From the NCBI GenBank assembly GCA_965230915.1, contig OZ246395.1, positions 600,935 to 664,934 of the forward strand: a stretch of DNA of 64,000 nt, read 5' to 3'. This document shows, piece by piece, positions 21,891 to 64,000 of the stretch; positions within the stretch are counted from its first letter, which is position 1, and every line of letters begins with the position of its first letter. A model generated the notes under the pieces. The model was not told where the DNA came from. It did no database searches and was given only the letters and a program-made list of their open reading frames with translations. This DNA is from an uncultured Candidatus Saccharibacteria bacterium (GTDB lineage Bacteria; Patescibacteriota; WWE3; 2-01-FULL-39-13). Both the position numbers and the translations under genes were made by a program.

Positions 21891-23984
21891 TTACTTAATT
21901 TCTAGAGTTTTATCTGCATTTAGAAGAACATCCTGACTGACCCCATCTAGACCAATTTTATAGCTATCGGTACTCGATCCGGATTGTCTTTGAATCAAGA
22001 TTTTGTAGTCATCTGTGTTTACTGTAGCTGGTAACTCGTATGTAAATGTAACATCCAAGTCAGTTTCTTTCATTTGAGTAGTGAATGATTCGAAGTAGGT
22101 CTTTCCAACTGTATCATCTTGGTACTCTGCTCCATGTGCGTCTTGGCCGTCTGATGCGGTTACAGAGATCATCTTTGATCCAGAAGGGGCATAGACTCTT
22201 AAATAACCTTTATAGAAACAGCAAGGATCAATATTGTACCAGTCAGGTCTCTTTGGATTATGAATTGTTACCTTAACAGTGCTAATTTTCTTTCCGTCTT
22301 TGACTTCAACGTTTTTAGTAACAGTTTGTGTGACAAAACCTTCTTTAGTCCAATCAGCCTTACCTGAACCAAAGTTACTACGATTTACATGAAGATAATC
22401 ATAACCTTCTGGTGTTGGAGATATTCTTCCTCCATATCCCAAGTCTTCAAATGCTTTTTGCACAGCTGGATCGAAAGAATATAAAACAATATCTTTCTTA
22501 CTCATTGAATCGAGCATAACTTTTGTAATATTTACCAAGTTAGTAGCTTCTGAAGTGAATACTTTTTCTAGAATTGATTGACCTAGGAATTTGATAATTT
22601 CTTTTCTTCCAATAGTTTCAGCAAGTTTTCCGCCGGCAATGTCTTCTAAGTTTTCGATAACATTGTCAGCATTAAATTCGGTTACTGGAATAGTGATGTA
22701 AGAACCTGTGTCAGTTCTGATTGAATATTTTTCAGTATTAACTGGGCCAACAGCTCTAAGTAAATCTACGGCAATGTCGTTATTAATTTGGATAACTCCA
22801 TCAATTTGCTGTGGAAGAGATCGGTCTTTATTCCAGAATTCGGTTAGCAACATATTTGCAGCCTGTGGGAAGTCAGCGTTTGTGCTGGTAGCATCACGAG
22901 CGTACAAACGGGCTCCACGATCTTGAATATACAAGTATCGGCCTAAGAAATAAGGTACATTTCGGCTAACCAAGTTTGAGGAACCTGTTCTATCTCCTTC
23001 ATCAATAAAGTATGTATCGATTGAATAAGTAATTTGTGGAATACCCTGGTTGAACTCAGCAACAATAATATATGTATTGAATCCACCGGACATACGAAGC
23101 TCGTAGTTATTAGCCATTAAAATAAGATAGCGTTTTGGAGCATTTAGTCCCATAAATTCTGGAACGGCATTAAAGAATGATTCAAATTGTGGAGCTTTGT
23201 CTGCAAGTTCTGATGAAATTGCCTGCATTCCTAGAATTTGTTCTCTAACATTTATATTTGGGTCAACTCCAAAGTATGAAACGAAGCCTGGAAGACTTCT
23301 TGGATATCTCGATGCATCGATTTGTGCGAGTTCGCTATCTATTTTCTGCATTTTATCTGAAATCTCGCTAACCTTGCTCGAGAATTGAGGCATAAGTCTA
23401 ATTAGTTTGATAACACGTTCCTGTGCCGGAATACTTGTTGCATCTTTACCTTCTGTAGCAAATCCTAAATCTGCCGCATGTGGTTCTAATATAGATATTG
23501 TAAGTTCACCTAGTTCTATACCCTGCTCTGCAACTGAAAGCATTCTCTGTGAATCTTGATAATAAGCTTCTGTACCCGGAATATGTCTAATCATAGACAT
23601 GTTACTTTCATATACACTTTCGAATTCTGCTAATTCACTCTTGGTTTTTTCTAGTCCGTTTTTAACTTCATCAAAATCCTGTTCATGTAACCCCTGGTTT
23701 ATTGAAGCGGTACTGTCTTTAAGTTCTTGAGCTTTGGCCATAATATTTAGCATCGGCCTAACTACAAAGAAATAAGCTGCAATTAGCAATACAACTAAAA
23801 TAGCGGCAAGTACTCCTAATACTCTTAAAACTATCTTCATATTTATATTGATTTTGGGCATTTTAAAACCCTTTGAAGGGGTACTATTAAAGCTAGAAGT
23901 CGTGTTAGCTCCAAATCCAGATTTCGCTGGTTGAGAAAAAGTTGGGGTTAATCGTTTCATATATGAATTTTGATACTTGATCAA
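21891..23984 (-). CDS. DUF4012-family membrane-anchored extracytoplasmic protein
   Basis: 697 aa with an N-terminal TM segment. The motif PKRYLILMANNYELRMSGGFNTY matches the DUF4012 signature (KRYL.L.QNN.E.R.TGG). Sits adjacent to the PglC-like gene, as is typical for this family. Confidence 0.6.
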   Translation of the reverse strand: MIKYQNSYMKRLTPTFSQPAKSGFGANTTSSFNSTPSKGFKMPKININMKIVLRVLGVLAAILVVLLIAAYFFVVRPMLNIMAKAQELKDSTASINQGLHEQDFDEVKNGLEKTKSELAEFESVYESNMSMIRHIPGTEAYYQDSQRMLSVAEQGIELGELTISILEPHAADLGFATEGKDATSIPAQERVIKLIRLMPQFSSKVSEISDKMQKIDSELAQIDASRYPRSLPGFVSYFGVDPNINVREQILGMQAISSELADKAPQFESFFNAVPEFMGLNAPKRYLILMANNYELRMSGGFNTYIIVAEFNQGIPQITYSIDTYFIDEGDRTGSSNLVSRNVPYFLGRYLYIQDRGARLYARDATSTNADFPQAANMLLTEFWNKDRSLPQQIDGVIQINNDIAVDLLRAVGPVNTEKYSIRTDTGSYITIPVTEFNADNVIENLEDIAGGKLAETIGRKEIIKFLGQSILEKVFTSEATNLVNITKVMLDSMSKKDIVLYSFDPAVQKAFEDLGYGGRISPTPEGYDYLHVNRSNFGSGKADWTKEGFVTQTVTKNVEVKDGKKISTVKVTIHNPKRPDWYNIDPCCFYKGYLRVYAPSGSKMISVTASDGQDAHGAEYQDDTVGKTYFESFTTQMKETDLDVTFTYELPATVNTDDYKILIQRQSGSSTDSYKIGLDGVSQDVLLNADKTLEIK

Positions 23985-24007
23985 TTTACCATTTCAAATT
24001 TTATTTT

Positions 24008-24661
24008 TCAATATGCCCCTTCGCCCTTAATTATCGCGAACGGAGTCTTTATTAATAACTTTAAATCAAATTGCAATGAATGATGGTCAGCATAATAAAC
24101 ATCCATATCTATTCTTTGATCAAAAGTAATATTTGAACGACCATAAACCTGCCAGTACCCTGTAATACCGGGAACAACGGAAGTGATCTTTTTTAATTTT
24201 TCAGCATTTTCTGGGCTTTTAGCAGCATATAATTCAAACTCGTCTGGTCTTAAGGCTCGTGGACCAACAATACTCATATCTCCTTTTATTACATTTAGCA
24301 TCTGTGGAAATTCATCAATTGAATATTTACGGATAAACCTTCCGAATTTAGTTATACGTGGGTCATTAACAATCTTGTTGTTTCCACTTCTTATTTGTTT
24401 ATACAGTTCTGGATCTTTAAATAGCAATTCGTCGGCATTCATGATCATCGATCTGAATTTATAGAATTCAAAAAGCTTGCCCCCGAGCCCAACGCGTTTC
24501 TGATGATAAAAAGGTGTGTATTTATCCTGAAACCAGATTATTAGCATTGTGGCTATATATATAGGTGAAAAAACAATAATAAAAGCTATAGCCATAACGA
24601 TATCTAGAAGTCTTTTAAGTGGGTTAATTGGGCTTATGCTATTTTGAGCTTCGTTTTCCAT
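24008..24661 (-). CDS. small monotopic phosphoglycosyl transferase (PglC/WbaP C-domain-like sugar transferase)
   Basis: 217 aa. Bac_transf motifs KRVGLGGKLFEFYKFRSM, DEFPQMLNVIKGDMSIVGPR, and PGITGYWQVYGRS. Confidence 0.85.
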   Translation of the reverse strand: MENEAQNSISPINPLKRLLDIVMAIAFIIVFSPIYIATMLIIWFQDKYTPFYHQKRVGLGGKLFEFYKFRSMIMNADELLFKDPELYKQIRSGNNKIVNDPRITKFGRFIRKYSIDEFPQMLNVIKGDMSIVGPRALRPDEFELYAAKSPENAEKLKKITSVVPGITGYWQVYGRSNITFDQRIDMDVYYADHHSLQFDLKLLIKTPFAIIKGEGAY

Positions 24662-24719
24662 ATTTAGTTGCAGTATGACTCTATTTTCGCAAGCGATTTA
24701 TATCACGAAGTGAAAAAGA

Positions 24720-25805
24720 TCATGTATATGATCTTATATTACGTGTAAATTCGTCTTTCGTAAATTTATTTGCCTGAATTATACAGTTTTTAGCCTCAAT
24801 CTCAATTTCATCAAATTTAGATAAAGCCGATTTTAAGCTATCTGTCGTTTGGTTATCAAAAAACAAACCAGTCTTTTTTTCGATAATTGTTTCAAGTGCA
24901 CCACCAGCCTTGTACGCAATAACAGGCACTCCAAAAGATTGCGCCTCAACAGATGTAATTCCAAAGTCTTCTTTTTGAGTCATGATAATTGCCTTTGAGC
25001 CTAAATAATTTTGTATCAAATCGGAATCATTCAGTCGACCCATAAATTTTACGTAATTTTTGTCGGCCATATTTTCTAAAGCTTCTTTATATCTTCCTTG
25101 ACCTACTATTCTTAAATTTTGTTTTAGTTCACTACAAGCTTTTACGGCTAGCTCTATTCGCTTCCACTTTTCTAATCGTGAAACCAAAATGTAATAGTCA
25201 CCTTTGGGTGCCTTTACTTGATTCGATATATTCAGATCGTGATATGGATAAACAACATCCGACTCACGATTCCAATATTTCTTTATCCTTTTTTGTATAG
25301 TTTTTGAATTGGCTAAAAGAATATCCGGATATTTTGAAACATGTTTATCCCATGCTCGCATCAATAATAAAAAAGGATAAAGCAAAATTACTGCGTACTT
25401 ATTAAAGTAAGAATGTGGTTCCCAAACCATACGCGCGGGAGAGTTTATATAAGCAATATGTTTAGCTTCCGATTTGGTGCGAACACCATGCGCAAAGCGG
25501 GCCGATGATGAAATTACTAAATCATATTGGTTTAAATTAAAAAGCCAAAAAGCAGGCTGATAAAAAATGGCGAGAGCTTTATAAAACTTTTCCTTTTTAG
25601 GAATTTTATTTAGAAAACTTGTATGAATTTTTAAATTGGGATTTTTTGCTAATAGCCGATCGATCCATTCTTTAGAAATTATTGAAGTATACAAATCTGC
25701 ATTCGGGAAAATCTCTAATAAACATTCAACAAGCTTTTCTGCTCCGCCCTTTTGAATGAAATCATCGTGAACAATTGCAATTTTTTTATCAGAAAGCTTG
25801 CTCAT
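24720..25805 (-). CDS. GT4 glycosyltransferase
   Basis: EDFGITSVEAQSFGVPVIAYKAGGALETI (GT4 EX7E region). N-terminus IAIVHDDFIQKGGAEK. Confidence 0.8.
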   Translation of the reverse strand: MSKLSDKKIAIVHDDFIQKGGAEKLVECLLEIFPNADLYTSIISKEWIDRLLAKNPNLKIHTSFLNKIPKKEKFYKALAIFYQPAFWLFNLNQYDLVISSSARFAHGVRTKSEAKHIAYINSPARMVWEPHSYFNKYAVILLYPFLLLMRAWDKHVSKYPDILLANSKTIQKRIKKYWNRESDVVYPYHDLNISNQVKAPKGDYYILVSRLEKWKRIELAVKACSELKQNLRIVGQGRYKEALENMADKNYVKFMGRLNDSDLIQNYLGSKAIIMTQKEDFGITSVEAQSFGVPVIAYKAGGALETIIEKKTGLFFDNQTTDSLKSALSKFDEIEIEAKNCIIQANKFTKDEFTRNIRSYT

Positions 25806-26943
25806 AGACCTTTAGAGTTTCTTGGGCCATTTTGCTCCACGAATAGTTTTTAATATTCTCAAAGCCTTTTCTTATTAAATCATTTCGCAAATTTTCATCC
25901 GAGACAATTTGATTTAATTTTTCAGTTATATCGATATTACTATTCGGATCAAAATATAAAACAGAATCCCCAAAAATTTCACGGTGTGTCGGAATATCTG
26001 ATAAAACGACCGGCGCTCCAAATGCTTGAGCTTCTAATGGCGTTATACTAAAACCTTCTTTTAAAGATGGAAATACATAAGCCAATGCGCCCCTATATAA
26101 ATAAGCTAAATCTTTATCAGAAACATATTTTGCACCTTCGGAAAATTTTGCAGCATAAATTACTTTTCCGTCTAAATTTAGTGCGTGACTAAATGCAGCT
26201 GTTCTTTGTGAAAAGTCATCGATTTTTCCGGCGATTATTAATTGGTTATTTAATCTTGTTCGATCTAAAAATTCTTTATACGAAACTATTAATGTATTTA
26301 AATTTTTATGTGGATATGCACTGCCTACATATAGAAAATATCTCGATTTGATTCCCATCTCTTCGATGCGTGTTAGTAAGACTCGTTCGTCTCTCGGAGC
26401 TTGGGCCTTAAGTGAATCATCAACACCTTCGTTACTAACAATAATTTTTTCTGGTTTAATTTTGAGTTTTTGAATAACTTCGTCACGAACTGTTGCAGAT
26501 GGCGTAATTATTTTTTTAGCATGATGTGCAGCAGTATTAATTACAAACTTATATGCAGCCTTTTTCGCCTGGTACATTGGACCAGGAAGTGTTGTTGCTG
26601 ATTTCGAATCGAATTCATGCATTGTTAAATCATGAATTGTGATTACGGTTTTGCCGCGATATAAAACTGGCACATTAAAGTGTGGAACATGCAATAAATC
26701 TAAATTCGCACGCATGTATTCTGTTAGTAAAAGTGTTTGCTCTTCGAGTGAGTACCAAGGAATATCAGCAATCCATTTTTTAAAATTTGGATTTTTTGGT
26801 TTGTACTGTTCACTTCCCTTTTTTGTTAGAAAAATTACGTATTGGTTTTTATTGTCGATTTTTTCGAGTTCAGTAATAAGGTTTGAGACGTAACGGCCTG
26901 GGCCGGCGACTCCATAAAAACGTGCATCGATTCCGATTTTCAT
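25789..26943 (-). CDS. GT4 glycosyltransferase
   Basis: KEGFSITPLEAQAFGAPVVLSDIPTHREIFGDS (GT4 EX7E). Confidence 0.8.
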   Translation of the reverse strand: MKIGIDARFYGVAGPGRYVSNLITELEKIDNKNQYVIFLTKKGSEQYKPKNPNFKKWIADIPWYSLEEQTLLLTEYMRANLDLLHVPHFNVPVLYRGKTVITIHDLTMHEFDSKSATTLPGPMYQAKKAAYKFVINTAAHHAKKIITPSATVRDEVIQKLKIKPEKIIVSNEGVDDSLKAQAPRDERVLLTRIEEMGIKSRYFLYVGSAYPHKNLNTLIVSYKEFLDRTRLNNQLIIAGKIDDFSQRTAAFSHALNLDGKVIYAAKFSEGAKYVSDKDLAYLYRGALAYVFPSLKEGFSITPLEAQAFGAPVVLSDIPTHREIFGDSVLYFDPNSNIDITEKLNQIVSDENLRNDLIRKGFENIKNYSWSKMAQETLKVYEQAF

Positions 26944-26957: not shown

Positions 26958-27845
26958 CTATTTAATTCGAGAGGTACGAATTTTTTCTAAAATATTAATT
27001 GCAAATAGAATGAATCCTGTAGCGAATTTAGGATATTTCTTAGAATAATGCTTCTCATAAAAGAGCCTCATGGCTTGGGTTCTGGCTTTGCTCATTTTTA
27101 GACGCGTTTCTTTTGATGCTTTAGAAACATCTCCGGTTTCTTTGCGAATTCCGACAGAAACACCTTTATAATGTAATGATTCAAATTGTGGCAAATACAT
27201 TAATTTATAACCGGCCTGTTTAATTCGATAACACATGTCGACGTCTTCTCCATATACAAAGTAGTCTTCGTCCCATAAGCCAATTTTGTCTAAGATTTCG
27301 CGGCGCATGAGCATAAAATGCGAAATGCATAGATCAATTTCATGTGGAATATCCATATTTTCGTATCCCATAAAGTATTGGTTAAAAGTTTTTGATTTTG
27401 GAAATACTTTGTTTAGTTTTGAGAAATGTGTGAGCGCCGCCCAAGGGGTAGGAAAACCTCGGTGTGCATCAGGATCTAAAGTGCCATCTCTCAAAATAAG
27501 TTTACAGGTTGCGGCGCCGACATCTTTATTAGCTTCGAAATAGTCGACCATTCCTGAAATCGTGCTCTCTTTCGGAAAAGCATCGCTTCCCATATACAAA
27601 AGATAATCACCTTTCGAATTTTTTATTCCGAGGTTGTACCCGGCAGAAATTCCTCTATTCTCAGCCTTAATTGCAATTACATATGAGAAATTTTCTTTTA
27701 CTGCATCATAAGAGCCATCGCTGGAACCATTATCGACAACAATAATTTCTAAATTTTTATAGTCGGATTTATGTAAATTGCGAATGCAATCTAATAAAAC
27801 ATCTCTGGTGTTGTAATTTACGATAATGACTGAAACGAGTTTCAT
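26958..27845 (-). CDS. GT2 glycosyltransferase
   Basis: VSVIIVNYNTRDVLLDCIRNL...LEIIVVDNGSSDGS (GT2-A fold DXD region). Confidence 0.85.
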   Translation of the reverse strand: MKLVSVIIVNYNTRDVLLDCIRNLHKSDYKNLEIIVVDNGSSDGSYDAVKENFSYVIAIKAENRGISAGYNLGIKNSKGDYLLYMGSDAFPKESTISGMVDYFEANKDVGAATCKLILRDGTLDPDAHRGFPTPWAALTHFSKLNKVFPKSKTFNQYFMGYENMDIPHEIDLCISHFMLMRREILDKIGLWDEDYFVYGEDVDMCYRIKQAGYKLMYLPQFESLHYKGVSVGIRKETGDVSKASKETRLKMSKARTQAMRLFYEKHYSKKYPKFATGFILFAINILEKIRTSRIK

Positions 27846-27952: not shown

Positions 27953-29233
27953 ATGGATATAATCAAAAAATTAAGCGCATTTTCAAGCAAACAATTTATA
28001 CTGAGCCGATCTTTGATGGTTATTATAGCTTCTTTTACCGCTAACATTTTCTCATATTTATTTCAGCTAGTTTCCGGACGATATTTTTCAAAAGAAGAAT
28101 ATGGAGTATTGGTAGCACTTTTTTCATTAAGTGGAATTATTCCTTTAGTAGCGCAGTTTTTTGTAAGTGGAATCCCTAAAATTGTCGCAGAAATTAAAGA
28201 TGTCGATTATCCGAATCGTATTTCAAGCCTTTTTTACGCAATTTTTAAAATTAATACTTTTATAACGTTAGGCACGTTAGTCTTAATGTTTTTGTTTAAA
28301 GACAATATCGCTGACTTTCTGAATATCACCGACAAAAGCGTTTTAGTTCCATTTACCTTTGCTGTTGCAGCGGGAACTTTTACTTTGTTTTTTATTCCAT
28401 TCATTCAAGGTTTAACACGGTTTAAAGCTTATTCTTTTGTAACACTTTTAACAGCAATTGCGAAACTTTCGGTTGCTATCGTTGTTTTATACTTAGGCCT
28501 TGCAGTAAAAGACATTTTTTGGGGATTAACATTTACAACTTTAGGCATCGGAATAATTTGCTACAAAATATTACTTAAAAATATAAACCTAAATTGGAGG
28601 TTAACCGACCGCGAAGATATAGATATCCTAATTAAATACTCTTTAGGTGGAGCACTGTCACTAATCGGTTTAAATCTTTTAAATTTAACCGATGTTATTT
28701 TAGTAAAACATTTTTTCTCACCAGAAATGGCCGGGGTTTACGGATCGATCTCGGTTATTGGCCGAATAGTCTTTTATGCAGCATCACCAGTTGCAATCGT
28801 TATGCTTCCGATATGTACTGAAAAATTTAAAAAAGGTGAAGACTTTATTAAACCATTTTTATCAGCGCTCGCAATTTCTGGGACAATTTGTATAACAGCT
28901 GCATTTTTCTATTCGGAATTTCCACATTTCGTAATCACCACCCTATTTGGATCATCTTACTTAAGTGCCGAACCATATTTGGGCCTATTTGCTTTTTTTA
29001 TGCTTGGTTATACATTCATTTTTATTTTCTCTACATTCTTTATTGCAATTTCAAAGTTTTTCCTAAGTTCACTGGTAATTATTTCTGCTATTGTTCAAGC
29101 TGCTGGAATTTATTTTTTCTGGCATGAAAACATCTATCAGGTTATTTATGTATCTATATTCTCCGTTTCACTTGTATTAATTGCTTATTTATTTGCTTTC
29201 TTTATTTTATTGAGAAAACCCTCTACTGCTTAG
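27953..29233 (+). CDS. Wzx-like oligosaccharide flippase / polysaccharide biosynthesis protein (MOP superfamily)
   Basis: 426 aa with about 12 TM segments. Located within the glycan locus. Confidence 0.55.
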   Translation: MDIIKKLSAFSSKQFILSRSLMVIIASFTANIFSYLFQLVSGRYFSKEEYGVLVALFSLSGIIPLVAQFFVSGIPKIVAEIKDVDYPNRISSLFYAIFKINTFITLGTLVLMFLFKDNIADFLNITDKSVLVPFTFAVAAGTFTLFFIPFIQGLTRFKAYSFVTLLTAIAKLSVAIVVLYLGLAVKDIFWGLTFTTLGIGIICYKILLKNINLNWRLTDREDIDILIKYSLGGALSLIGLNLLNLTDVILVKHFFSPEMAGVYGSISVIGRIVFYAASPVAIVMLPICTEKFKKGEDFIKPFLSALAISGTICITAAFFYSEFPHFVITTLFGSSYLSAEPYLGLFAFFMLGYTFIFIFSTFFIAISKFFLSSLVIISAIVQAAGIYFFWHENIYQVIYVSIFSVSLVLIAYLFAFFILLRKPSTA

Positions 29234-31004
29234 CGGGTTGATCGAGTTTTTCTGGGTTAGCTTTGAAATCTAAAACTTGATTTAAAATACTTTGGAATTG
29301 AGCATTTGTAGGATCAAGGCTTAATAGATATTGAGCAGTTTTTTCCGCTTCATCGAAATTTTTTAACTGAACATTTAGGCTTATATATTGACCGATTAAA
29401 TTTAGGTTGTTAGGGCTAATTTGCATCGCAGTTTGATATTCTTTATACCCACTCTCATTATCTCCAACTTGAAAATATAAGATTGCCAAATTTTGGTGTG
29501 ACTGCCAAATAATTGGACTATATTTTATTGCATTTAAATATCCTTCTTCAGCTTTTTTAAAATATTCTTGTCGCTTAGCTGGGTCGGTCTCGGTTTGGAA
29601 AAGTGTCTGATATGTGTACGCCAGATTGTGATATGCATCGGCATAATTCGGCTTTAATTTTGTTGCGTAGTCGAATTCTTGAATTGCTCGCTGATAATCG
29701 CCATGTCTCGCATAATAGTCTCCTAAATTATTATGATTATTGGGGCTCGATGGTGAATATTTTGCTGCTGAAAGCCAAAGGGTATCCTCATTTTTCCAAT
29801 CTAAATTACGGTAAACAGTGCGAATTCCAAGTGCCATTATAATTACGATAAATACACATAAGACAGCTATTTTTATGCTCTCATTATTAAGTAATTTATA
29901 TATTAAATGCGCGACTATCGCGGCAAACCCCAAAATGCCCAGATATGCATATCTTTCGGCTACAAGCCAGGAAAGTTTTAATGGGGTCATAGTTGGAAGC
30001 ATTACGATCATAAAAAAGAAAAACCAGAATGTTAAATATTTATAATCGAGAATTCTTAAGTATTTTTCATTTTTCTCAAAATGTATATTCTTCCAAAACA
30101 TTAGTGTATTCTTGAATCCTTTTCTTAATTTGATAATAAGTACAATTAACGAAATTATTATGACAAGAAAAACTCCTAAGCGAATAAAGTAATTTGCGAA
30201 TGAATAGACTGTTTCAGAATGATATAAAGTCAGACCTTGTGGCCACAAAAATAACTGAATATATTCGGTAACAGCTATTGGAATTTGATAAAGCGGATTA
30301 ATATACCCCGCTTCTTGGTAGTATTCTGTCGCTAAAATTTCAGTACGCTTGCCAACAAGCCCGGCTAGCATTAAAACGAATGGGATAGAAATTAACATGT
30401 ATGAAGCTGATTTTAAGAAAGATGATTTTGATTCCTGTGAATAAATAAATTTATAAAGAATATAAATTGCGGCTAATGATACTGCTTTTTCGGAAGTTAG
30501 AACTGCAAATAAATATAAAAGCAGGGATAAAAAATATTTCCAATTATATTTATCTTCTGATTCAAGAAAGAATATAAAGCTTACTAAAAAGAATAGCGAA
30601 TAATAAGCGTAAACTCCGCCGGCTATCCATGTAATAGATTCTGCAAGAATCGGATGGACAATAAATAATGAAGTTACTAATATTCCGAGCCTTTTATCGT
30701 AAAGATTTCTAAATAAGTAATAGATTGAACAACCAACAGCTGCATGAAAGATTATATTAATTAATCTAAATGCCCAGGCTTGCATTCCGAATGCATGAAA
30801 GGTTAAAAGTTGTATTACTGCTGTCCCAAAACCTATGAAGGATCGAAATACATAACTCCACTTTCCAAATTCTGGATTTAATAAAATTCCACTTCGATCA
30901 TCAGATACAAAATCATTCCCTAGATTATTTGCGTATACTACAAATGCAGCAATGCAGATAATAATATAAATGTATTTATCTTTTAATAAAAAATTTTTAA
31001 ACAA
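29223..31004 (-). CDS. GT-C-type polytopic membrane glycosyltransferase (PMT/ArnT-like) with C-terminal TPR repeats
   Basis: The N-terminus has about 10 TM segments, with an FVSDDRSG acidic loop after TM1. The C-terminal ~200 aa carries TPR-like repeats (AYHNLAYTY, WQSHQNLAILYFQVGD). Confidence 0.6.
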   Translation of the reverse strand: MFKNFLLKDKYIYIIICIAAFVVYANNLGNDFVSDDRSGILLNPEFGKWSYVFRSFIGFGTAVIQLLTFHAFGMQAWAFRLINIIFHAAVGCSIYYLFRNLYDKRLGILVTSLFIVHPILAESITWIAGGVYAYYSLFFLVSFIFFLESEDKYNWKYFLSLLLYLFAVLTSEKAVSLAAIYILYKFIYSQESKSSFLKSASYMLISIPFVLMLAGLVGKRTEILATEYYQEAGYINPLYQIPIAVTEYIQLFLWPQGLTLYHSETVYSFANYFIRLGVFLVIIISLIVLIIKLRKGFKNTLMFWKNIHFEKNEKYLRILDYKYLTFWFFFFMIVMLPTMTPLKLSWLVAERYAYLGILGFAAIVAHLIYKLLNNESIKIAVLCVFIVIIMALGIRTVYRNLDWKNEDTLWLSAAKYSPSSPNNHNNLGDYYARHGDYQRAIQEFDYATKLKPNYADAYHNLAYTYQTLFQTETDPAKRQEYFKKAEEGYLNAIKYSPIIWQSHQNLAILYFQVGDNESGYKEYQTAMQISPNNLNLIGQYISLNVQLKNFDEAEKTAQYLLSLDPTNAQFQSILNQVLDFKANPEKLDQPAKQ

Positions 31005-34189: not shown

Positions 34190-34574
34190 AAAAAATATCT
34201 TTTAGTACTCCAATTATCAAAATTCCAAATCCAATTAAAGAGAAATATTCTGCTAACTTCGAATATCCTAAAAGTAATGCGATAACACCCAGACATATCA
34301 TAATGATAGAAAAACCATATGAGTATTTTCTATCAACAATAAAGGTAAAAAATAGACACCAAAGAATTATAAGTATGAATATCAAATTTAAAATTATTGA
34401 AAATCCGAAATAACTTGTAAGAGTAATAAAAAAAATTATGGCAAGTATTGCATTTAAGAACTTTTTATCTAGCCCATAAACTTTATCTATATTATTTATA
34501 TTTACATAAAAAGTTATTCCTATTATTAGCGCAAGAACAAATCTTATAATGTCAAATTGACTTTCAATAATCAT
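34167..34574 (-). CDS. small hypothetical 4-TM membrane protein
   Basis: 135 aa, 4 hydrophobic segments. Overlaps both flanking genes by a few nt (operonic). Confidence 0.4.
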   Translation of the reverse strand: MIIESQFDIIRFVLALIIGITFYVNINNIDKVYGLDKKFLNAILAIIFFITLTSYFGFSIILNLIFILIILWCLFFTFIVDRKYSYGFSIIMICLGVIALLLGYSKLAEYFSLIGFGILIIGVLKDIFYEKLFEK

Positions 34575-42434: not shown

Positions 42435-42522
42435 GAGCTAATTTTACGGGATAACTGTGATTCTGCATAATATACTTTTATGTTTAATCTGTGTTATAAA
42501 AATATTATTATCCTGCCACAAA

Positions 42523-59150: not shown

Positions 59151-59155
59151 AAATA

Positions 59156-60343
59156 CTATAAGCTATTGGGGTTGTATAAATTTTTATAAACCTCGATAGT
59201 TTGTTTTGCTGTGTTTTCCCAGCTATACTGCGCTTTTATCTCATTACGCATATTTTCAAGCATTTTAGGCTTAAATATTGCACTAAGTATAGCATTTTTG
59301 ATGCTTTCTACGCTGTCAGGCTCGCAATAATAAGCATAATCTTTTAAGTATTCTTTTGTGCGTTCGCCAGTTGCAACTACATTCATTCCCGAAAAGGCTG
59401 CCTCTAAAGTTACAAGACCGGTTGTTTCGAACCAACTGGTATGAACAAAAATTCCATCGTGATGCATTGCAGAAGCAACAATTTCAGGTGGCTGTATCTT
59501 AATGTATATTATTTGTTTATTTTTTGAGATCTTGTCTCTAAATCTACTCGCATATTCATAGCTGTTTTTTGTCATAGCTCCAATAAATACTAAATAAAAA
59601 TCATTTAGATGACCTGATTTTTGTAATTCTTCAAATGCCTGAATTAAAGCTAATTGATTTTTACGTGGCTCGATTCGCCCAACAGCCAAAATTATTTTTT
59701 TATCAGAAATATCTATATCGAAATTTTCACTTATTAATTGGTTGAATTTTTGGGTATCTGTGTCTTCGAAAACTTTTAAATCAACACCATTAACAATTTT
59801 TTTATATTTAAACTCTGAAAAATTAAAATCGGTTTTAATATCTTCAGCCTCTTTTTCTGTTTGCACAAGAACAATATCAGACATTTTTAAAACTTCGCGC
59901 TGCTGATTTCTAAATCCACTAATTAGTTGGCTAAAAGTTGGAATAAATTTTTTAGGATAGTACATGCTTCGATAGAAGTTCTTTCCTACATCACGTAAAA
60001 CCTGCGACCTGAATATAAAATTATAAAGTTTTCGAATATCATAGGCAGCGTTTTCCTCATACTTTATAACTTCTTTTTCTGAATGGTGAATTGCAGATAA
60101 AACTACTTTTTTGCCATGTCCTTTCGCCCATTTCGCCTGTGAATATGTTTCAGGAATCCAATCAAGATTAAATAAATGAACAATATCGTAATTATTGATA
60201 TCTTCCGGCTTAATTTTTGTTTTAATATCTATTTGAATTGTTGAGTCGGCTTTTTCAATAGCAGATTTAGTATTTTCCATCTGTGCGGTATCTCCACCTC
60301 TTGGATTGTATAAGTCAATGCGTGACTGAAAGAGTACTTTCAT
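59156..60343 (-). CDS. GT4 glycosyltransferase
   Basis: ILAVGRIEPRKNQLALIQAF...TSWFETTGLVTLEAAFSGMNVVAT. Confidence 0.8.
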   Translation of the reverse strand: MKVLFQSRIDLYNPRGGDTAQMENTKSAIEKADSTIQIDIKTKIKPEDINNYDIVHLFNLDWIPETYSQAKWAKGHGKKVVLSAIHHSEKEVIKYEENAAYDIRKLYNFIFRSQVLRDVGKNFYRSMYYPKKFIPTFSQLISGFRNQQREVLKMSDIVLVQTEKEAEDIKTDFNFSEFKYKKIVNGVDLKVFEDTDTQKFNQLISENFDIDISDKKIILAVGRIEPRKNQLALIQAFEELQKSGHLNDFYLVFIGAMTKNSYEYASRFRDKISKNKQIIYIKIQPPEIVASAMHHDGIFVHTSWFETTGLVTLEAAFSGMNVVATGERTKEYLKDYAYYCEPDSVESIKNAILSAIFKPKMLENMRNEIKAQYSWENTAKQTIEVYKNLYNPNSL

Positions 60344-61446
60344 TATGAGTTGTATAAATTAGTATACGCCTCCCAGAACTTTTCTATCGAGAACTTTTTT
60401 CCCTGATCTTTTTCTGCTTCTACATTAATATCTGAAAAATTTATTATTCTATCTTTTAAACTTATTGAATCCCCAACTTTAAAATAGGCAATCGCATCTT
60501 CACCAACATCTTTTAGCACATCAATATCGGAAGCAATAACTGGAACTCCAACTGACATTGCCTCTACTAAAGCAATTCCAAAACCTTCGGCAAATGATGG
60601 AAATACAAAACAATCGAACGAACTTAATATTTTGTTTTTGTCCGATTCTTGAAAATTGCCTAAAAAATGAACCCGATCTTGTATTCCATATTCTTGAGCC
60701 TTTAGCTGAATATCATTTTGCAGTGCCCCACTTCCGGCTAAAACCAAGACATATTTATCGTCACTAATTGATTTAAAAGCTTCTAATAAAACCATATGGC
60801 CTTTTTCTTCTGTGAATCTGGCAATATTACCAATTACTATTTTATTTTCATCAATGTTTAATCTAGTACGAATTACGTTTCGACCATCTTGATCAAATTT
60901 AAACTGTTTTAAATGAATTCCATTTGGAATAACTCTAATTTTATCTTGATTAATAAACTCTGCTTTTGCACGAATTGATTTTACGGACCGAGTTAATGCA
61001 ATAACATCTGTTGCAAAAACATTTCCAACCACTGCATTTGCAAATGTATTTATAGGTAATGCAAAATATTTTTTAACCTTTGAATATCTCCATTGTGTAA
61101 ATGAAGTATGCACATGATAAATTCTCTTTTTGCATTGAGATTTCGCAAGCCATCCACCGAATGTTGCAAGTGAACCTGTAAGAAGTTCGTGTGCATGCAA
61201 AATATCTATTTTCTCATCTTCAATTATTTTTCTGATTTTGTTTGAATATGTAAAATCGGCTTCAAACTTTGGAGATAAATTATAATGTTTCTTTGCCCCA
61301 GCTTTTAAATACTCTTCAACGAGTGGACCATTTGGGCACACTACATAAAATTCAAATCTATGTGAGAGACCTTCTATTATATCTAAAATATGTTTTTCAA
61401 CTCCCCCATATTGAGATGAGTGGTAACACATTAAAACCTTTTTCAT
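60343..61446 (-). CDS. GT4 glycosyltransferase
   Basis: PSFAEGFGIALVEAMSVGVPVIASDIDVLKDVGED (EX7E). N-terminus LMCYHSSQYGGVEKH. Confidence 0.85.
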   Translation of the reverse strand: MKKVLMCYHSSQYGGVEKHILDIIEGLSHRFEFYVVCPNGPLVEEYLKAGAKKHYNLSPKFEADFTYSNKIRKIIEDEKIDILHAHELLTGSLATFGGWLAKSQCKKRIYHVHTSFTQWRYSKVKKYFALPINTFANAVVGNVFATDVIALTRSVKSIRAKAEFINQDKIRVIPNGIHLKQFKFDQDGRNVIRTRLNIDENKIVIGNIARFTEEKGHMVLLEAFKSISDDKYVLVLAGSGALQNDIQLKAQEYGIQDRVHFLGNFQESDKNKILSSFDCFVFPSFAEGFGIALVEAMSVGVPVIASDIDVLKDVGEDAIAYFKVGDSISLKDRIINFSDINVEAEKDQGKKFSIEKFWEAYTNLYNS

Positions 61447-62696
61447 TTGCTAAGTTCTTCGGTAATTAATTTAAGCTGCCTATCGACTTTGCCACTCCAG
61501 CTGTTTTGCGCTGCCATTTTTTTACGCGCATTTTGCTTATCAATATTATCTTCTTCATACGCTCGCTTTATCATTGCTACAAATTCATCGTCGTTTTTTG
61601 CGATATATCCATCTGGATCAAAACCCTGATAAGCCGGCATATTCGTGACAATCGTCGGTAAACCAGCGGCTAGGCCTTCAAAATATTTAATCGGGAAACA
61701 TCCGCCTACCGTATATTTATTTAAATTATATGGAATAAAAAACACATCAAAATTATTAAAATATTCCGGAGTCTCAGCCCAAGGCTTCAAACCCAAAAAA
61801 TGAACATTTCCCATGCTTTTTAATTTCGTTAAATCTAAATCGGGATCAGAAACTTTTTCAGGTCCGATCATTACAAAATGAAAATCAGGCAATTCTTTGG
61901 CACATTTTTCAATTAATGGAATATTATTTTTGTAAGTATCTATAGCGCCGGTGAATCCCACGCGAGGATGTTTAATATTTTTTAAATCAGCCGGCTCTTC
62001 AAGTGTTCCACGAACAAAATCGAATTTTTCACTGACCGCAGCATTGGGCAAATAAGAAACAACCGGCTTCCATTTCATTAATTTAGTAACAAGCCCGGGA
62101 GCACTAGCAAAAACTAAATTTGCTTTTTTTGTTAGCCATTCTTCGCGATGCAAAACCCAGTCAACGCCTTGTAAACCATGTTGATTCAGTCTGATTTTTA
62201 GTTCATCATCAATATATTGAATCCATGAAATTACCGACGGATTAACTTTTTTTCGTTCAGAATATTCTGGAAATTCGGTATATTCATCGACGCAATCATA
62301 AACCATTAAATCGTGGCTAAGTTTATCTGAAAAATTTTCAAGATCAGGAAAATCAAAGTGATATATATACAGAATTCTTTTATAGACTTCCCCTTCGGCT
62401 TGAGTTTTTAAAATATTGTTTAAAACCAACGAATGATATGCTGTATTAACTATTGAAAATGGCCAAAAATTAAAAATATTCATTCCGCGATAAATCGTTA
62501 AATTATCGTTTTTCTTTTCGCCAAAAATAAATTTGTAATTTTTAAAAATATTCTTGAGTGCTTTAAACCTCAAAGGTGGATCAACGAAAATAACTTTGTG
62601 ACCTTTCTCTACTAATTGAGTTGCTACATGCCACTTGTTAGTTTTAAGTTCAAAATCAAATGGTTGGTTGGATAAAATAACAAATTGATATTTCAT
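61443..62696 (-). CDS. GT1/GT4-like glycosyltransferase
   Basis: 417 aa. The C-terminal region FFIPYNLNKYTVGGCFPIKYFEGLAAGLPTIVTNMP has a GT-B donor-binding fold pattern. Confidence 0.55.
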   Translation of the reverse strand: MKYQFVILSNQPFDFELKTNKWHVATQLVEKGHKVIFVDPPLRFKALKNIFKNYKFIFGEKKNDNLTIYRGMNIFNFWPFSIVNTAYHSLVLNNILKTQAEGEVYKRILYIYHFDFPDLENFSDKLSHDLMVYDCVDEYTEFPEYSERKKVNPSVISWIQYIDDELKIRLNQHGLQGVDWVLHREEWLTKKANLVFASAPGLVTKLMKWKPVVSYLPNAAVSEKFDFVRGTLEEPADLKNIKHPRVGFTGAIDTYKNNIPLIEKCAKELPDFHFVMIGPEKVSDPDLDLTKLKSMGNVHFLGLKPWAETPEYFNNFDVFFIPYNLNKYTVGGCFPIKYFEGLAAGLPTIVTNMPAYQGFDPDGYIAKNDDEFVAMIKRAYEEDNIDKQNARKKMAAQNSWSGKVDRQLKLITEELSK

Positions 62697-62697
62697 A

Positions 62698-64000
62698 TTA
62701 TTTAGCTTTGTTTAGTTTAAAAATATAATAGTAGTTAACTCCTGCAATTTTAATCGTATCATCTGGAGTCTTTAATGAGTATAAATTCTTATAATACTCA
62801 TTTCTTTCTGGCCTAAAGGCGGGCAATACAAGATAATCAGCCTGATTTCTTTCCTGTTCATTCTTAATATTTAGCACTTCGAATTCTGCAAATGGCCTTA
62901 GGTAATCAAAATCTGCGATTGCGATTTTAATAGTTTTATCTTTTCCAACTTGCTTTTCATTAAAATATTCTGCTACTTTATCATATCCGATTAACCATTT
63001 GGGCTCGATTATATATCTACCGTCTTCGACACCTCCAACTAATGGACTGTAGTATGCGAGATAATTTGGATGTAATCCATAAAACAATAACCCTCTAAAA
63101 ATTATTAACCCGATTATAAAAGCAATTAGTATTTTCCTTTTTATCATCTCAGAATAGAACCAGGCAGAGAGAATGCCCATCGAAAAAACAATCGGCAAAG
63201 AATATCTATCTAGCTTCTTAGAAACTACTGTAACCATTAATAAATAGAAAAATGCATATAGGCCGAGCGTAATATAAAACCCAATTTTTTTATCGTTGAA
63301 ATATTTTGTACGATTTTTGAATAGTAAATATATTGACCCAAGAAAGCCAATAACAAAAACAATCGAATACCTAGCAAAAAAAACAATCGGATAAAATAAT
63401 GGGCCTGGATCATCTGTTAATTGTCCAAACCAATAATGCTCATGGCCTTCTTCAATTGCAATTCCTTGAACACCTTTAAATAAGTATAAATTTATAGAGT
63501 CAATTGGAATCACCCACATTGCTGGCCAAAAAATAAAAAATGCCAAAATAGAAAAACCAAATGTTACGATAACTTTATAAATTGTCGTGAGATCTCTAAA
63601 TCTATAAAAATAGATTGCACTTATTAGTGCAAAAAATGGAATTAAGAATAGTGCCGAGCTTTTCGTAAGAAAAGCGAGGCCTGCAAATCCTCCTGCAAAT
63701 ACTGAATCAAATGTAATCAGCTTTTTATTTTCGCTCGTTATCAGACTATAAAAATATAAAACCGAAATAAACATAAACAGTGAAATCATTGCATCTGTAT
63801 GCAACGCGCGAGCTAATGCCAAATAAAATGGCTCAATCGAAACTAACAACACCGCAAATAATGCTAGCTTTATACCTACGATTTTTCTTAGTTTATGATA
63901 AGCAATTGTTATTAAAACGGAAGTTAACACAACTACTACAGTTGCTTGGATCTGATTATTTATTAAAAATTCGTGCCTCGAATCAGGTGTTGCTAAAATG
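62698..64000 (-). CDS. GT-C-type (ArnT/PMT-like) polytopic membrane glycosyltransferase, N-terminus beyond the window edge
   Basis: The frame stays open past the listed GTG at 63930 through to base 64000. Multiple TM segments, then a ~120-aa C-terminal soluble domain. Confidence 0.5.
   Translation of the reverse strand, partial: ILATPDSRHEFLINNQIQATVVVVLTSVLITIAYHKLRKIVGIKLALFAVLLVSIEPFYLALARALHTDAMISLFMFISVLYFYSLITSENKKLITFDSVFAGGFAGLAFLTKSSALFLIPFFALISAIYFYRFRDLTTIYKVIVTFGFSILAFFIFWPAMWVIPIDSINLYLFKGVQGIAIEEGHEHYWFGQLTDDPGPLFYPIVFFARYSIVFVIGFLGSIYLLFKNRTKYFNDKKIGFYITLGLYAFFYLLMVTVVSKKLDRYSLPIVFSMGILSAWFYSEMIKRKILIAFIIGLIIFRGLLFYGLHPNYLAYYSPLVGGVEDGRYIIEPKWLIGYDKVAEYFNEKQVGKDKTIKIAIADFDYLRPFAEFEVLNIKNEQERNQADYLVLPAFRPERNEYYKNLYSLKTPDDTIKIAGVNYYYIFKLNKAK

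Follow-up and report, generated by a model that had tools for sequence, protein, structure and literature searches.

A probable two-compartment surface-glycan assembly locus with AftD-like GT-C proteins in a small-genome Patescibacteria bacterium

Gene content and organization of the locus

The stretch of DNA analyzed here (64,000 nucleotides, referred to as the window) contains, at positions 21891 to 64000, 31 glycan-assembly genes that follow one another without interruption and that probably constitute the main, two-compartment locus for cell-surface glycan assembly of a small-genome Patescibacteria (CPR) bacterium. In the genome of this uncultured organism, which measures approximately 0.95 Mb, the block spans at least 42 kb. 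The open reading frame map revealed no unrelated genes between the glycan genes, which form five divergently oriented transcription blocks with close-packed or overlapping neighbors. Every gene named in a first-pass annotation made from the sequence alone was recovered as an open reading frame of the proposed position and family (Table 1); its gene list had omitted two membrane protein genes, those for the orphan 740- and 135-residue proteins. RecO directly adjoins the locus on the left, beyond the DUF4012 gene. The DUF4012 family is reported to be common to CPR and Gram-positive bacteria and is present in a Bifidobacterium CPS/EPS cluster (PMC6744442).

Table 1. Predicted genes of the glycan locus (window coordinates)
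Position	Strand	Assignment	Basis
21891..23984	-	DUF4012 protein, left edge of locus	Pfam DUF4012 E 1.3e-13; one TM helix
24008..24661	-	PglC/WbaP-C-terminal-type initiating phosphoglycosyltransferase, small	Pfam Bac_transf E 1e-60; NCBIfam EPS_sugtrans E 4e-74, under full-length cut-off
24720..25805	-	GT4	Glycos_transf_1 E 8e-29
25789..26943	-	GT4	Glycos_transf_1 E 5e-28
26958..27845	-	GT2	Glycos_transf_2 E 1.3e-28
27953..29233	+	Wzx-type flippase	Polysacc_synt 38.4 bits (cut-off 28.2); ~10 TM helices
29223..31004	-	Probable PMT_2-superfamily GT-C, C-terminal TPR domain	TPR matches; PMT_2 under cut-off (E 0.0044 full length, 0.002 N-terminal 400 aa; profile positions 8-154 of 160); at least 9 TM helices
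31062..31970	+	Polyprenyl-phosphate monosaccharide synthase-like GT2 (DPMS/ArnC/GtrB type)	Nearest solved structures DPM synthase 5MLZ (E 1e-8), ArnC, GtrB
31967..34189	-	Orphan polytopic membrane protein, 740 aa	Probable start 34147; weak CBM-like matches only, beta domains
34167..34574	-	Orphan protein, 135 aa	Four hydrophobic segments (four TM helices); no match in family searches
34571..36886	-	AftD-like GT-C paralogue, 771 aa	hhalign to 750-aa family; no match in Pfam
36867..38426	-	Double SAM-methyltransferase	Methyltransf_11 E 2e-43, two stretches
38501..39562	-	FemAB/GNAT-like transferase, weak assignment	Pfam Acetyltransf_6 E 4e-5; NCBIfam TIGR03019 femAB E 9.5e-7, under cut-off
39546..40475	-	GT2	Glycos_transf_2 E 2e-23
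40472..41308	-	GT2	Glycos_transf_2 E 3e-27
41310..42434	-	GT4	Glycos_transf_1 E 2e-37
42457..44598	+	DUF2334/polysaccharide-deacetylase-like and GT2 fusion	DUF2334 E 1e-8; Polysacc_deac_1 E 6.5e-4; Glycos_transf_2 E 4e-29
44629..45438	+	GT2	Glycos_transf_2 E 1.6e-42
45435..46310	+	GT11	Glyco_transf_11 E 3.3e-28
46312..47172	+	Methyltransferase	Pfam match; within conserved cassette
47151..48221	+	Glyco_trans_1_2 protein	Pfam match; within conserved cassette
48205..48810	+	Methyltransferase	Pfam match; within conserved cassette
48797..49852	+	GT2 upstream of AftD-like gene	Glycos_transf_2 E 1e-18; generic GT2 matches only
49885..52137	+	AftD-like GT-C, 750 aa	Predicted fold
52140..53876	+	Divergent GT-C-like protein without TM1, 578 aa	hhalign to AftD-like profile; no match in family searches
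53864..56089	-	Wzy_C protein (O-antigen ligase/polymerase class)	Wzy_C E 1.7e-10, residues 211-366; ~15 TM helices
56079..59150	-	Wzy_C (N-half) and ArnT/PMT-like GT-C (C-half) fusion, 1023 aa	Wzy_C E 8e-16, residues 233-386; PMT_2 E 3e-22 and PMT E 4e-16, residues 480-694
59156..60343	-	GT4	Glycos_transf_1
60343..61446	-	GT4	Glycos_transf_1
61443..62696	-	GT4	Glycos_transf_1
62698..64000	-	PMT_2-family GT-C, cut by window end	PMT_2 E 3.7e-9, 37.4 bits (cut-off 26.1)

The gene content fits the cytoplasmic polyprenyl-PP-oligosaccharide stage proposed earlier. Besides the initiating transferase and the Wzx-type flippase, each found once in the window by Pfam, it comprises exactly the twelve GT2/GT4 enzymes claimed (six Glycos_transf_1 or GT4 proteins, one Glyco_trans_1_2 protein, and five plain GT2 proteins), the GT11 enzyme, three methyltransferase genes, one with a double domain, the deacetylase-GT2 fusion, and the weakly assigned FemAB-like transferase. 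Sugar-nucleotide synthesis genes were not found within the window, nor were a chain-length regulator or an LCP-type wall ligase. The missing genes include those for GDP-fucose, although GT11 is present and a fucose-containing glycan had been proposed earlier. Likewise, no lipid-P-sugar flippase was recognized in the window, GtrA, MATE, and ArnEF all being without match.

PMT_2/ArnT-type GT-C and Wzy_C proteins

The extracytoplasmic stage is matched by the DPMS/ArnC/GtrB-like synthase, six putative GT-C modules, and the two Wzy_C modules already noted in the first-pass annotation. The top NCBIfam matches of the synthase candidate, whose earlier assignment is in accordance with its structural neighbors, were AglJ, PgfS, ArnC, and PpgS, each under the cut-off. 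Among 38 related loci that were tallied, 12 have a homologue of it next to an AftD-like gene. Seven large proteins had been proposed as GT-C enzymes; profile and fold searches sustained all of them at differing strength, i.e., four as solid and two as probable GT-C candidates, and the seventh (53864..56089) as a Wzy_C protein. As a GT-C enzyme of the lipid-P-sugar class the latter was rejected, Wzy_C alone indicating the ligase/polymerase class, and it had thus been counted twice, as GT-C and as Wzy_C module. Wzy_C enzymes use lipid-PP-oligosaccharide donors and represent a second GT-C structural class (PMC10920833). The protein shares 31% identity with the N-half of the fusion; its C-terminal 312 residues, a membrane extension, had no match in family searches, and neither Wzy_C module matched a solved structure by sequence.

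The proposed catalytic acid of GT-C enzymes sits right after TM1 (PMC11127046), where a conserved Asp or Asp-Glu was observed in GT-C candidates of the locus. For the C-half of the fusion, which carries a WDE motif, matches to the ArnT family of NCBIfam (E 1e-35) and to the ArnT structure 5EZM (E 1e-19) solidly argue for a GT-C module; its ArnT-like and PMT_2 profile matches lie above the curated cut-offs. The same assignment appears solid for the partial PMT_2 protein at the window end, which aligned with ArnT-like halves at 92.6% in hhalign and matched the Agl23 family under the cut-off (E 1e-5). The TPR protein is a probable GT-C enzyme judging from its PMT_2 match under the cut-off, its FVSDD motif after TM1, its hhalign match to ArnT-like halves (P 7e-4), and its orthologue in related locus L016, which matched PMT_2 (E 4e-5) and GtrII (E 0.0016).

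An AftD-like family and its partners

The 750-residue protein yielded no sequence matches in Pfam, NCBIfam, and the PDB. None of its 36 homologues contains a Pfam domain, and all named ones belong to CPR/Patescibacteria. Together they form an unannotated family, seen in no other group, of which this protein is here the founding member. AlphaFold2 produced a model with a pLDDT of 85.6 and a pTM of 0.88, for which Foldseek returned mycobacterial AftD as the top match (E 1.2e-8), followed by STT3, AglB, PglB, AftA, and AftB. The best 12 matches were all GT-C enzymes (probability 0.91 to 1.00; 1.00 for the top nine), whereas transporters appeared only at E > 0.08; the best TM-score was a modest 0.49. 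A G-D-Q motif after TM1 is near-invariant in the family, which also features other invariant Arg, Asp, and Lys residues, and the predicted fold makes a solid case for a GT-C enzyme. The likeness to the mycobacterial arabinan machinery suggested earlier is therefore real at the level of the fold.

Two further proteins appear to be related to this family. The 771-residue protein, with only two database homologues and a WGD motif after TM1, aligned with it in hhalign over 583 columns (probability 98.8%, E 6.6e-17), and profile similarity thus solidly supports its classification as GT-C. The 578-residue protein, at first aligned with the AftD-like profile at 72%, reached 95.8 to 96.7% with enriched alignments (E 7e-9 to 5e-10, approximately 400 columns) and is probably a GT-C remotely homologous to the AftD-like superfamily; an [FYW]-G-D motif is conserved at its N terminus. 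Since it lacks TM1, its putative activity is uncertain. Its gene is a conserved partner of the AftD-like gene, syntenic in 12 loci. The 740- and 135-residue proteins are conserved partners of AftD-like genes as well; in L007, L024, and L030, the 135-residue gene is flanked by a 578-like and a 740-like gene. The 740-residue protein was rejected as a GT-C candidate, having only its CBM-like matches. Several putative membrane sugar-transferases of the locus represent families unrecognized by any database.

Conservation in related loci

The AftD-like cassette is repeated in 40 related loci of WWE3, Levybacteria, Roizmanbacteria, and other Patescibacteria contigs, surveyed with 10-kb flanks that bound what is visible of each, and in all of them its AftD-like genes lie amid glycosyltransferase genes. 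The cluster is therefore lineage-typical, and the cassette is a feature of Patescibacteria rather than a one-off. Two to four tandem copies of it occur in Patescibacteria, with at least two in 27 of the 40 loci; the earlier statement that the GT-C complement lies far beyond a typical cluster is fair against O-antigen and capsule loci and needs qualification within this lineage. Of the 30 tallied loci with an identified gene upstream of an AftD-like gene, 28 have the GT2 gene (48797..49852 here) immediately ahead of it, an adjacency also present in L042 and L043. The Glyco_trans_1_2 gene occurs in 23 of 38 tallied loci and the second methyltransferase gene (48205..48810) in 21. L005, L024, and an independent JGI contig likewise carry the Wzy_C-ArnT fusion. 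The succession of GT4 trio and fusion recurs in L010 and L024; the fetched sequence of L008 ends at the trio, and in L005 one GT4 gene adjoins the fusion.

Alternative explanations

That the locus is an assembly chimera is extremely improbable and effectively refuted by this conservation. The GC content of the locus (0.28 to 0.34) is lower than that of the window's first 10 kb (0.37 to 0.39), but glycan loci usually have a low GC content. Moreover, the genes of the JGI contig follow in the same order for at least 22 kb, L005 is collinear at 46 to 74% identity, a Logan contig matches 5.2 kb of the locus and encodes three proteins, each 100% identical to its counterpart here, and start and stop codons overlap all along the locus. 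It is also unlikely, if less remotely so, that the 750-, 771-, and 578-residue proteins are transporters or structural membrane proteins with a GT-C-like appearance: curated GT-C families show no sequence match to them, the TM-scores are modest, and one of them lacks TM1, but the uniformly GT-C best fold matches, the near-invariant Asp after TM1 with its accompanying invariant residues, and the location of the genes in the 40 loci argue for enzymes.

Two other readings concern the product. Possibly, the block is a supercluster of at least two independent glycan pathways lying side by side instead of one sequential pathway, e.g., a Wzx/Wzy_C heteropolysaccharide next to a separate polymer or decoration from the Glyco_trans_1_2/methyltransferase/GT2/AftD-like cassette. 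The five divergent transcription blocks, the two Wzy_C proteins, and the several GT-C families are consistent with this; in many loci the AftD-like cassette occurs with neither the fusion nor an initiating transferase inside 10 kb, and the GT4 trio plus fusion is a separable cassette. Because these sub-cassettes separate in other genomes, the block could contribute to two or more products. However, the window has a single initiating transferase and a single Wzx, both cassettes adjoin here and in L005, L008, L009, L010, L024, and the JGI contig, and the 10-kb flanks limit the view of the other loci. We are rather doubtful that the locus serves mainly protein O-glycosylation, with the Wzy_C proteins as PglL-type oligosaccharyltransferases and the PMT_2/ArnT-like proteins, including the TPR protein, acting on envelope proteins such as S-layer proteins or pilins. 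Wzy_C is a domain of PglL/PilO as well as of WaaL, the PMT/PMT_2 matches fall in the protein-mannosyltransferase superfamily, the combination of PMT_2 and TPR is also that of eukaryotic TMTC protein O-mannosyltransferases, and the synthase candidate is weakly similar to the protein glycosylation enzymes PgfS and AglJ. Nevertheless, the C-half of the fusion matches best ArnT, a lipid A modifier, the largest family has as its top fold match AftD, an enzyme that extends polysaccharides, the weak CBM-like matches of the 740-residue protein hint at a glycan rather than a protein acceptor, and evidence for a target protein or sequon was not found.

Proposed mechanism

The two-compartment reading, which we consider the best one and of which we found no description in the searchable literature, builds on the observed gene content, family and fold assignments, conserved acidic motifs after TM1, and conserved synteny; from these we infer in which order the steps proceed, which donors and sugars are used, and what acceptor (a wall polysaccharide or lipoglycan, or else a protein) receives the glycan. 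At the cytoplasmic face, the PglC-type transferase would place a sugar-phosphate on polyprenyl phosphate, on which GT2, GT4, and GT11 enzymes would build an oligosaccharide that may be modified by the methyltransferases, the FemAB/GNAT-like enzyme, and the deacetylase domain before Wzx flips it over the membrane. At the outer face, the Wzy_C modules, proposed earlier to be PglL/WaaL-type ligases acting ahead of extension, would polymerize the lipid-PP-linked unit and/or pass it to the final acceptor. The DPMS/ArnC/GtrB-like GT2 would make polyprenyl-P-monosaccharide donors which, once flipped, may feed the six lipid-P-sugar-class GT-C modules (the two AftD-like paralogues with their divergent 578-residue relative, the fusion's ArnT-like half, and the two PMT_2-type proteins, one with TPR) for glycan priming, branching, or extension. 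As accessories to the AftD-like enzymes, the 740-residue protein may hold the glycan, and the 135-residue protein, hypothetically a small flippase or subunit, may flip the donor. The locus is a variant of known glycan pathways and not a new kind of system.

Layout and genomic context of the glycan locus

The region 21891..64000 of the window comprises 31 contiguous ORFs, which are arranged in five strand-alternating blocks with many start/stop overlaps and without unrelated genes between them. To the left of the locus lie RecO, a class II aminoacyl-tRNA synthetase, a division/cell wall cluster (mraZ-rsmH-ftsI-ftsW-murG-ftsQ-ftsA-ftsZ), and IleRS. Because RecO, the tRNA synthetase genes, and the division/cell wall cluster adjoin the locus, the DNA is chromosomal. 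The GC content, 0.37 to 0.39 over the window's initial 10 kb, is 0.28 to 0.34 in the locus, and neither tRNA genes nor signs of mobile elements were found in the window. The division/cell wall cluster is broken by a sigma-70/ECF-like gene in the opposite orientation, beside which lies a 392-aa ORF, and a 282-aa ORF is located between mraZ and the tRNA synthetase gene.

The first-pass annotation had described a large glycan assembly locus, and the Pfam scan reproduced its list of components almost item by item; its count of twelve GT2/GT4 glycosyltransferases proved exact when one Glyco_trans_1_2 protein is included with the GT4 and plain GT2 enzymes (table). The observation is thus confirmed, and its interpretation, a two-compartment system with at least seven extracytoplasmic GT-C proteins, is supported in part. 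It was not the case that most of these candidates lacked a GT-C family or fold match, and the net result in seven proteins is six GT-C modules of the lipid-P-sugar class, four solid and two probable, plus two Wzy_C modules. One protein, 53864..56089, had been entered both as GT-C and as Wzy_C and carries Wzy_C only, and the 740-aa and 135-aa ORFs had been overlooked. A DUF4012 protein at the left edge is a candidate for an uncharacterized auxiliary protein; the family is reported to be common to CPR and Gram-positive bacteria and to occur within a Bifidobacterium CPS/EPS cluster (PMC6744442). No sugar-nucleotide genes and no LCP ligase were found in the window.

Features of the glycan locus and its surroundings (nt positions in the window)
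Feature	Position	Match
Sigma-70/ECF-like gene	12205..12756	
392-aa ORF	12759..13937	MurA/EPSP synthase, weak and partial
282-aa ORF	18190..19038	None in Pfam or NCBIfam
Initiating transferase	24008..24661	Bac_transf, Pfam E 1e-60
Six GT4 glycosyltransferases	Starts 24720, 25789, 41310, 59156, 60343, 61443	Glycos_transf_1, Pfam
Five plain GT2 glycosyltransferases	Starts 26958, 39546, 40472, 44629, 48797	Pfam
Wzx	Start 27953	Polysacc_synt, 38.4 bits, above cut-off
TPR protein	29223..31004	PMT_2, 17.7 to 18.8 bits (cut-off 26.1)
DPMS-like GT2	31062..31970	
740-aa protein	31967..34189, minus strand	
135-aa protein	34167..34574, minus strand	
771-aa protein	34571..36886, minus strand	
Methyltransferases	Starts 36867 (double domain), 46312, 48205	Pfam
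FemAB/GNAT-like protein	Start 38501	Weak
DUF2334/deacetylase-GT2 fusion	Start 42457	Pfam
GT11	45435..46310	E 3e-28
Glyco_trans_1_2 protein	Start 47151	E 8e-24
750-aa protein	49885..52137, plus strand	
578-aa protein	52140..53876, plus strand	
741-aa Wzy_C protein	53864..56089	Wzy_C, 41.3 bits (cut-off 31.7)
Its C-terminal 312 aa	53864..54802	
Wzy_C-ArnT-like fusion, 1023 aa	56079..59150	Wzy_C, 58.7 bits, residues 233 to 386 (cut-off 31.7); C-terminal half, PMT_2 80 bits and PMT 59.9 bits, both above cut-off
ArnT/PMT-like protein, running past the window end	62698..64000	PMT_2, 37.4 bits, above cut-off

Wzx/Wzy-type components and the Wzy_C modules

With an initiating phosphoglycosyltransferase, many GT2/GT4 enzymes, Wzx, and Wzy_C membrane proteins, the locus resembles Wzx/Wzy loci for O-antigen, capsule, or EPS, and the set of initiating transferase, Wzx, and Wzy-type polymerase is complete if the Wzy_C proteins act as polymerases, the role that we infer for them. 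Both Wzy_C modules fall within their class by Pfam score and are 31% identical to one another over approximately 430 residues; neither matched a solved structure, WaaL or other, at the sequence level. As the 741-aa protein carries Wzy_C only, it belongs to the ligase/polymerase class, the second structural class of GT-C enzymes, which uses lipid-PP-oligosaccharide donors (PMC10920833). In contrast to known Wzx/Wzy loci and to WaaL/PglL ligases, one of the modules is fused to an ArnT-like GT-C half and the other is followed by a membrane extension of approximately 310 aa. This extension consists of several transmembrane (TM) helices and a soluble tail; it gave no family match and is unlike the ArnT-like half of the paralogue. 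A further difference from Wzx/Wzy loci is that no chain-length regulator (PCP/Wzz) and no export or attachment component was recognized in the Pfam scan of the 31 ORFs. The organism, as a member of the CPR, is also expected to have neither an outer membrane nor LPS.

ArnT/PMT-type GT-C proteins and a GT-C candidate with TPR repeats

The C-terminal half of the fusion and the protein at the window end resemble ArnT (GT83) and the protein O-mannosyltransferases (PMT; GT39) in that they pass the respective PMT/PMT_2 cut-offs. For the fusion half, ArnT was also matched in NCBIfam (E 1e-35) and as a solved structure (5EZM; E 1.1e-19), and a W-D-E motif follows its first helix, another shared feature. 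Since it scored 123 bits against an ArnT equivalog cut-off of 567 bits, this half is not an ArnT orthologue, and the similarity is at the family level only. The TPR protein, by comparison, remains under the PMT_2 cut-off, in which it differs from PMT and TMTC enzymes; its TM core followed by TPR repeats is the architecture of TMTC-type enzymes, and both this architecture and an FVSDD motif fit GT-C. One of its orthologues reached 24.3 bits with PMT_2 and matched GtrII (E 0.0016), two others gave no match, and an hhalign comparison with the ArnT-like halves yielded a P value of 7e-4. Judged by these sequence features, the TPR protein is a probable, not a proven, GT-C enzyme.

AftD-like GT-C proteins

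Four orphan membrane proteins of the locus gave nothing in Pfam and NCBIfam scans, also at E values of up to 5, and profile searches of the 750-aa family and of two other orphan families (A2 and A4) against PDB sequences returned nothing meaningful. Specifically, the 750-aa protein had no Pfam, NCBIfam, or PDB sequence match, and relaxing the thresholds or searching with a profile of 32 sequences did not change this; none of its 36 homologues (0/36) contains a Pfam domain. Its AlphaFold2 model, computed from a 32-sequence alignment, reached a pLDDT of 85.6 and a pTM of 0.88. In a Foldseek search of the PDB with this model, ranks 1 to 12 were all GT-C enzymes, with AftD first (E 1.2e-8), followed by STT3, AglB, PglB, AftA, and AftB, and transporters appeared at E values above 0.08 only. 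The polytopic core of the 750-aa protein thus matches solved GT-C enzymes in fold.

The closest structural counterpart, the mycobacterial arabinofuranosyltransferase AftD (PDB 6W98), resembles the 750-aa protein in its domain order, with the polytopic GT-C core at the N terminus and a beta-rich extracytoplasmic domain behind it, and in having an acidic residue after TM1. It differs in size, the 750 residues here being about half of the 1,312 residues of the AftD entry with a much smaller soluble part, and in sequence: neither a curated AftD HMM nor detectable homology connects the two. A near-invariant G-D-Q motif, within F-x-G-D-Q, follows straight after TM1 in the 750-aa family, with D36 conserved in at least 90% of sequences; the corresponding acidic motifs are H-D-E in tandem paralogues, W-G-D in the 771-aa group, and [FYW]-G-D in the 578-aa family. 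In several GT-C structures that have been solved, the Asp proposed as catalytic sits directly after TM1 (PMC11127046), and an acidic residue occupies the equivalent position in the 750-aa, 771-aa, and 578-aa proteins, where its extracytoplasmic placement is predicted from the positive-inside rule only.

The 771-aa protein has only two database homologues. Comparison of its family with the 750-aa family by hhalign gave a probability of 98.8% (E 6.6e-17, 583 aligned columns), and by this measure of sequence it is clearly homologous to the latter. Its only homologues (P0002; contigs L002 and L003) reside in a different glycan locus, which encodes an asparagine-synthase-like protein, a DegT-type aminotransferase, an epimerase, and a DUF2079 membrane protein, a gene set that points to a different, amino-sugar-containing product.

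A TM1-less relative

The 578-aa protein was related to the AftD-like profile with a probability of 72% (E 3.4e-5) when the first alignments were used; with alignments enriched from related loci, the values rose to 95.8 to 96.7% (E 7e-9 to 5e-10) over approximately 400 columns. The same protein family tested against the three-sequence 771-aa family alone gave a negative result, so the link to the AftD-like proteins, and with it the GT-C homology, holds through the larger profile only. Proteins of the 578-aa clade open with the conserved [FYW]-G-D motif, TM1 being absent, whereas more distant members retain a TM1 of their own. The 578-aa gene starts 3 nt past the stop of the 750-aa gene, and the last approximately 25 residues of the 750-aa protein form a TM helix. 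The missing TM1 and the neighboring C-terminal helix may mean that the two proteins can function only as a complex, or else that a gene was split long ago.

The 740-aa and 135-aa partners

The 740-aa family has 73 representative homologues, and a Pfam scan of all 52 tested members gave no match (0/52). In the model of the polytopic 740-aa protein (pLDDT 80.6, pTM 0.63), TM1 is accompanied by an alpha/beta domain and a bundle of membrane helices, and the C-terminal region is rich in beta structure. Because hhalign comparisons with the AftD-like and 578-aa families were negative, this protein, for which neither fold nor profile indicated GT-C, is not filed as a GT-C enzyme. Four cysteines of the family (C120, C132, C570, and C606) are nearly invariant, a pattern that suggests extracytoplasmic disulfides. 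As the deposited homologue P0069 begins at ORF residue 15, translation probably starts at 34147, and with that start the two ORFs, 740-aa and 135-aa, would no longer overlap. The 135-aa protein has four TM helices and no family match, and its gene is kept between the 578-like and 740-like genes in three related loci (L007, L024, and L030). That it is the missing flippase for lipid-P-sugar donors is only a guess.

The AftD-like/partner set is divided here over two operons, one encoding the 771-aa, 135-aa, and 740-aa proteins and the other the 750-aa and 578-aa proteins.

Polyprenyl-P-sugar synthase and three-component systems

The best solved relatives of the GT2 enzyme 31062..31970 among PDB sequences are DPM synthase (5MLZ), ArnC, and GtrB, and its top NCBIfam matches are AglJ, PgfS, ArnC, and PpgS, all under the equivalog cut-offs. 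The earlier label of a DPM1-like polyprenyl-P-sugar synthase is therefore reasonable at the family level, and the enzyme is predicted to belong to the GT2 family of polyprenyl-P-monosaccharide synthases. A second GT2 enzyme (48797..49852) was considered for the same role and rejected, its matches being generic GT2 only.

The combination of a DPMS/ArnC/GtrB-like GT2 with GT-C enzymes in one locus, and the proposed catalytic Asp after TM1, are shared with the three-component systems GtrA/GtrB/GtrC, ArnC/ArnEF/ArnT, CsbB/GtcA/YfhO, and PPPRS/MATE/GT136. In the last of these, the GT136 enzyme has a C-terminal carbohydrate-binding domain, which is a further likeness to the locus described here (Kelly et al. 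2024, PMC11127046). The three-component systems differ, however, in having a recognized flippase component, whereas no GtrA, ArnE/F, MATE, or EamA-type flippase was found in the locus; in having one GT-C module versus six here; and in lacking counterparts of the conserved 578-aa and 740-aa partners.

Conservation and lineage

All named homologues, on whose names the lineage assignment rests, belong to Patescibacteria, i.e., WWE3, Paceibacterota, Levybacteria, Roizmanbacteria, and MAGs labeled Saccharibacteria. Forty related loci (L004 to L043), some of them near-duplicates, were fetched, and 38 (L004 to L041) were tallied. The core order across them is Glyco_trans_1_2, methyltransferase, GT2, AftD-like gene. 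Of the 30 tallied loci in which the upstream gene was identified, 28 have the GT2 gene directly upstream of an AftD-like gene, and L042 and L043, which were not tallied, agree. Of the 40 loci, 27 carry at least two AftD-like copies. A 578-like gene comes next in 12 loci and a 740-like gene in 10, a DPMS-like GT2 gene is found nearby in 12, and several loci continue with the GT4 trio and the Wzy_C-ArnT fusion. One 5-kb contig encoding an AftD-like protein of the Patescibacteria family (L013, CAYZUJ010000103.1) is titled "uncultured Neisseria sp." and is probably mis-binned.

An independent JGI contig from a close relative (sample 3300050046) encodes a 70%-identical orthologue of the 750-aa protein and keeps the gene order of the window over at least 22 kb. 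This collinearity, together with the conservation in related loci, indicates that the locus is real and lineage-typical, and an origin as an assembly chimera was rejected, e.g., on the shared gene order of this contig. In the JGI contig, an RMNT_CmcI-type methyltransferase gene stands in place of the Methyltransf_11 gene (46312..47172), and this exchange in the closest relative suggests strain-level variation in glycan methylation.

Discussion

The best-supported reading of the locus is a two-compartment pathway. In the cytoplasm, a polyprenyl-PP-oligosaccharide would be built and methylated or otherwise modified; the modified oligosaccharide would be flipped by Wzx and then polymerized or ligated by the Wzy_C modules. 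The DPMS-like GT2 would make polyprenyl-P-monosaccharides, from which the GT-C enzymes would draw their sugars outside the membrane. Read in this manner, the system works like a Wzx/Wzy pathway combined with Gtr/Arn-type three-component extracytoplasmic glycosylation, and the fusion of Wzy_C to an ArnT-like half hints that a single acceptor undergoes two reactions in succession.

By analogy, the presence of so many GT-C paralogues calls to mind arabinan synthesis in mycobacteria, where the Aft/Emb enzymes of arabinogalactan and LAM likewise occur as several paralogues per locus beside a polyprenyl-P-sugar synthase. Unlike in mycobacteria, no decaprenyl-P-arabinose pathway genes were found in the window, and the host is a low-GC, small-genome member of the Patescibacteria and not an actinobacterium. 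New here are the family of AftD-like proteins, the relative without TM1, the 740-aa partner, and the conserved Patescibacteria cassette to which these belong, whose members are the Glyco_trans_1_2, methyltransferase, and GT2 proteins, between one and four AftD-like GT-C enzymes, and the 578-aa, 135-aa, and 740-aa proteins (the last with weakly CBM-like domains). In the partially covered literature on CPR/Patescibacteria with GT-C, AftD, or glycosylation, no description of such a cassette was found, and its novelty is in this sense unproven. A more far-reaching reading, which we regard as rather unlikely, joins these elements into a new extracytoplasmic machine, to date seen in Patescibacteria only. 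It would use polyprenyl-P-sugars to build, one sugar at a time, a wall polymer or lipoglycan resembling an arabinan, mannan, or galactofuranan, and would be a LAM/arabinan analogue of independent origin in ultra-small episymbionts; the 750-aa and 578-aa proteins would then be obligate partners in a heteromer, one supplying its C-terminal helix in place of the TM1 that the other lacks.

Patescibacteria (CPR) account for a large share of bacterial diversity. To our knowledge, every member in culture is found attached to other microbes, and their surface chemistry is essentially unknown. The glycan locus takes up at least 4.5% of a genome of approximately 0.95 Mb (945,287-bp contig), and, given this share and the retention of the core cassette across several CPR classes, its product is probably central to the envelope or to host contact. 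Three membrane families invisible to databases have been identified, namely, the AftD-like GT-C proteins, their TM1-less relative, and a partner outside GT-C whose domains are weakly CBM-like, and the concrete residues and gene pairs make the composition and assembly of the CPR coat a question open to experiment. If the AftD-like enzymes do build a polymer from lipid-P-sugars, arabinan/LAM-style extracytoplasmic synthesis would reach beyond the Actinobacteria.
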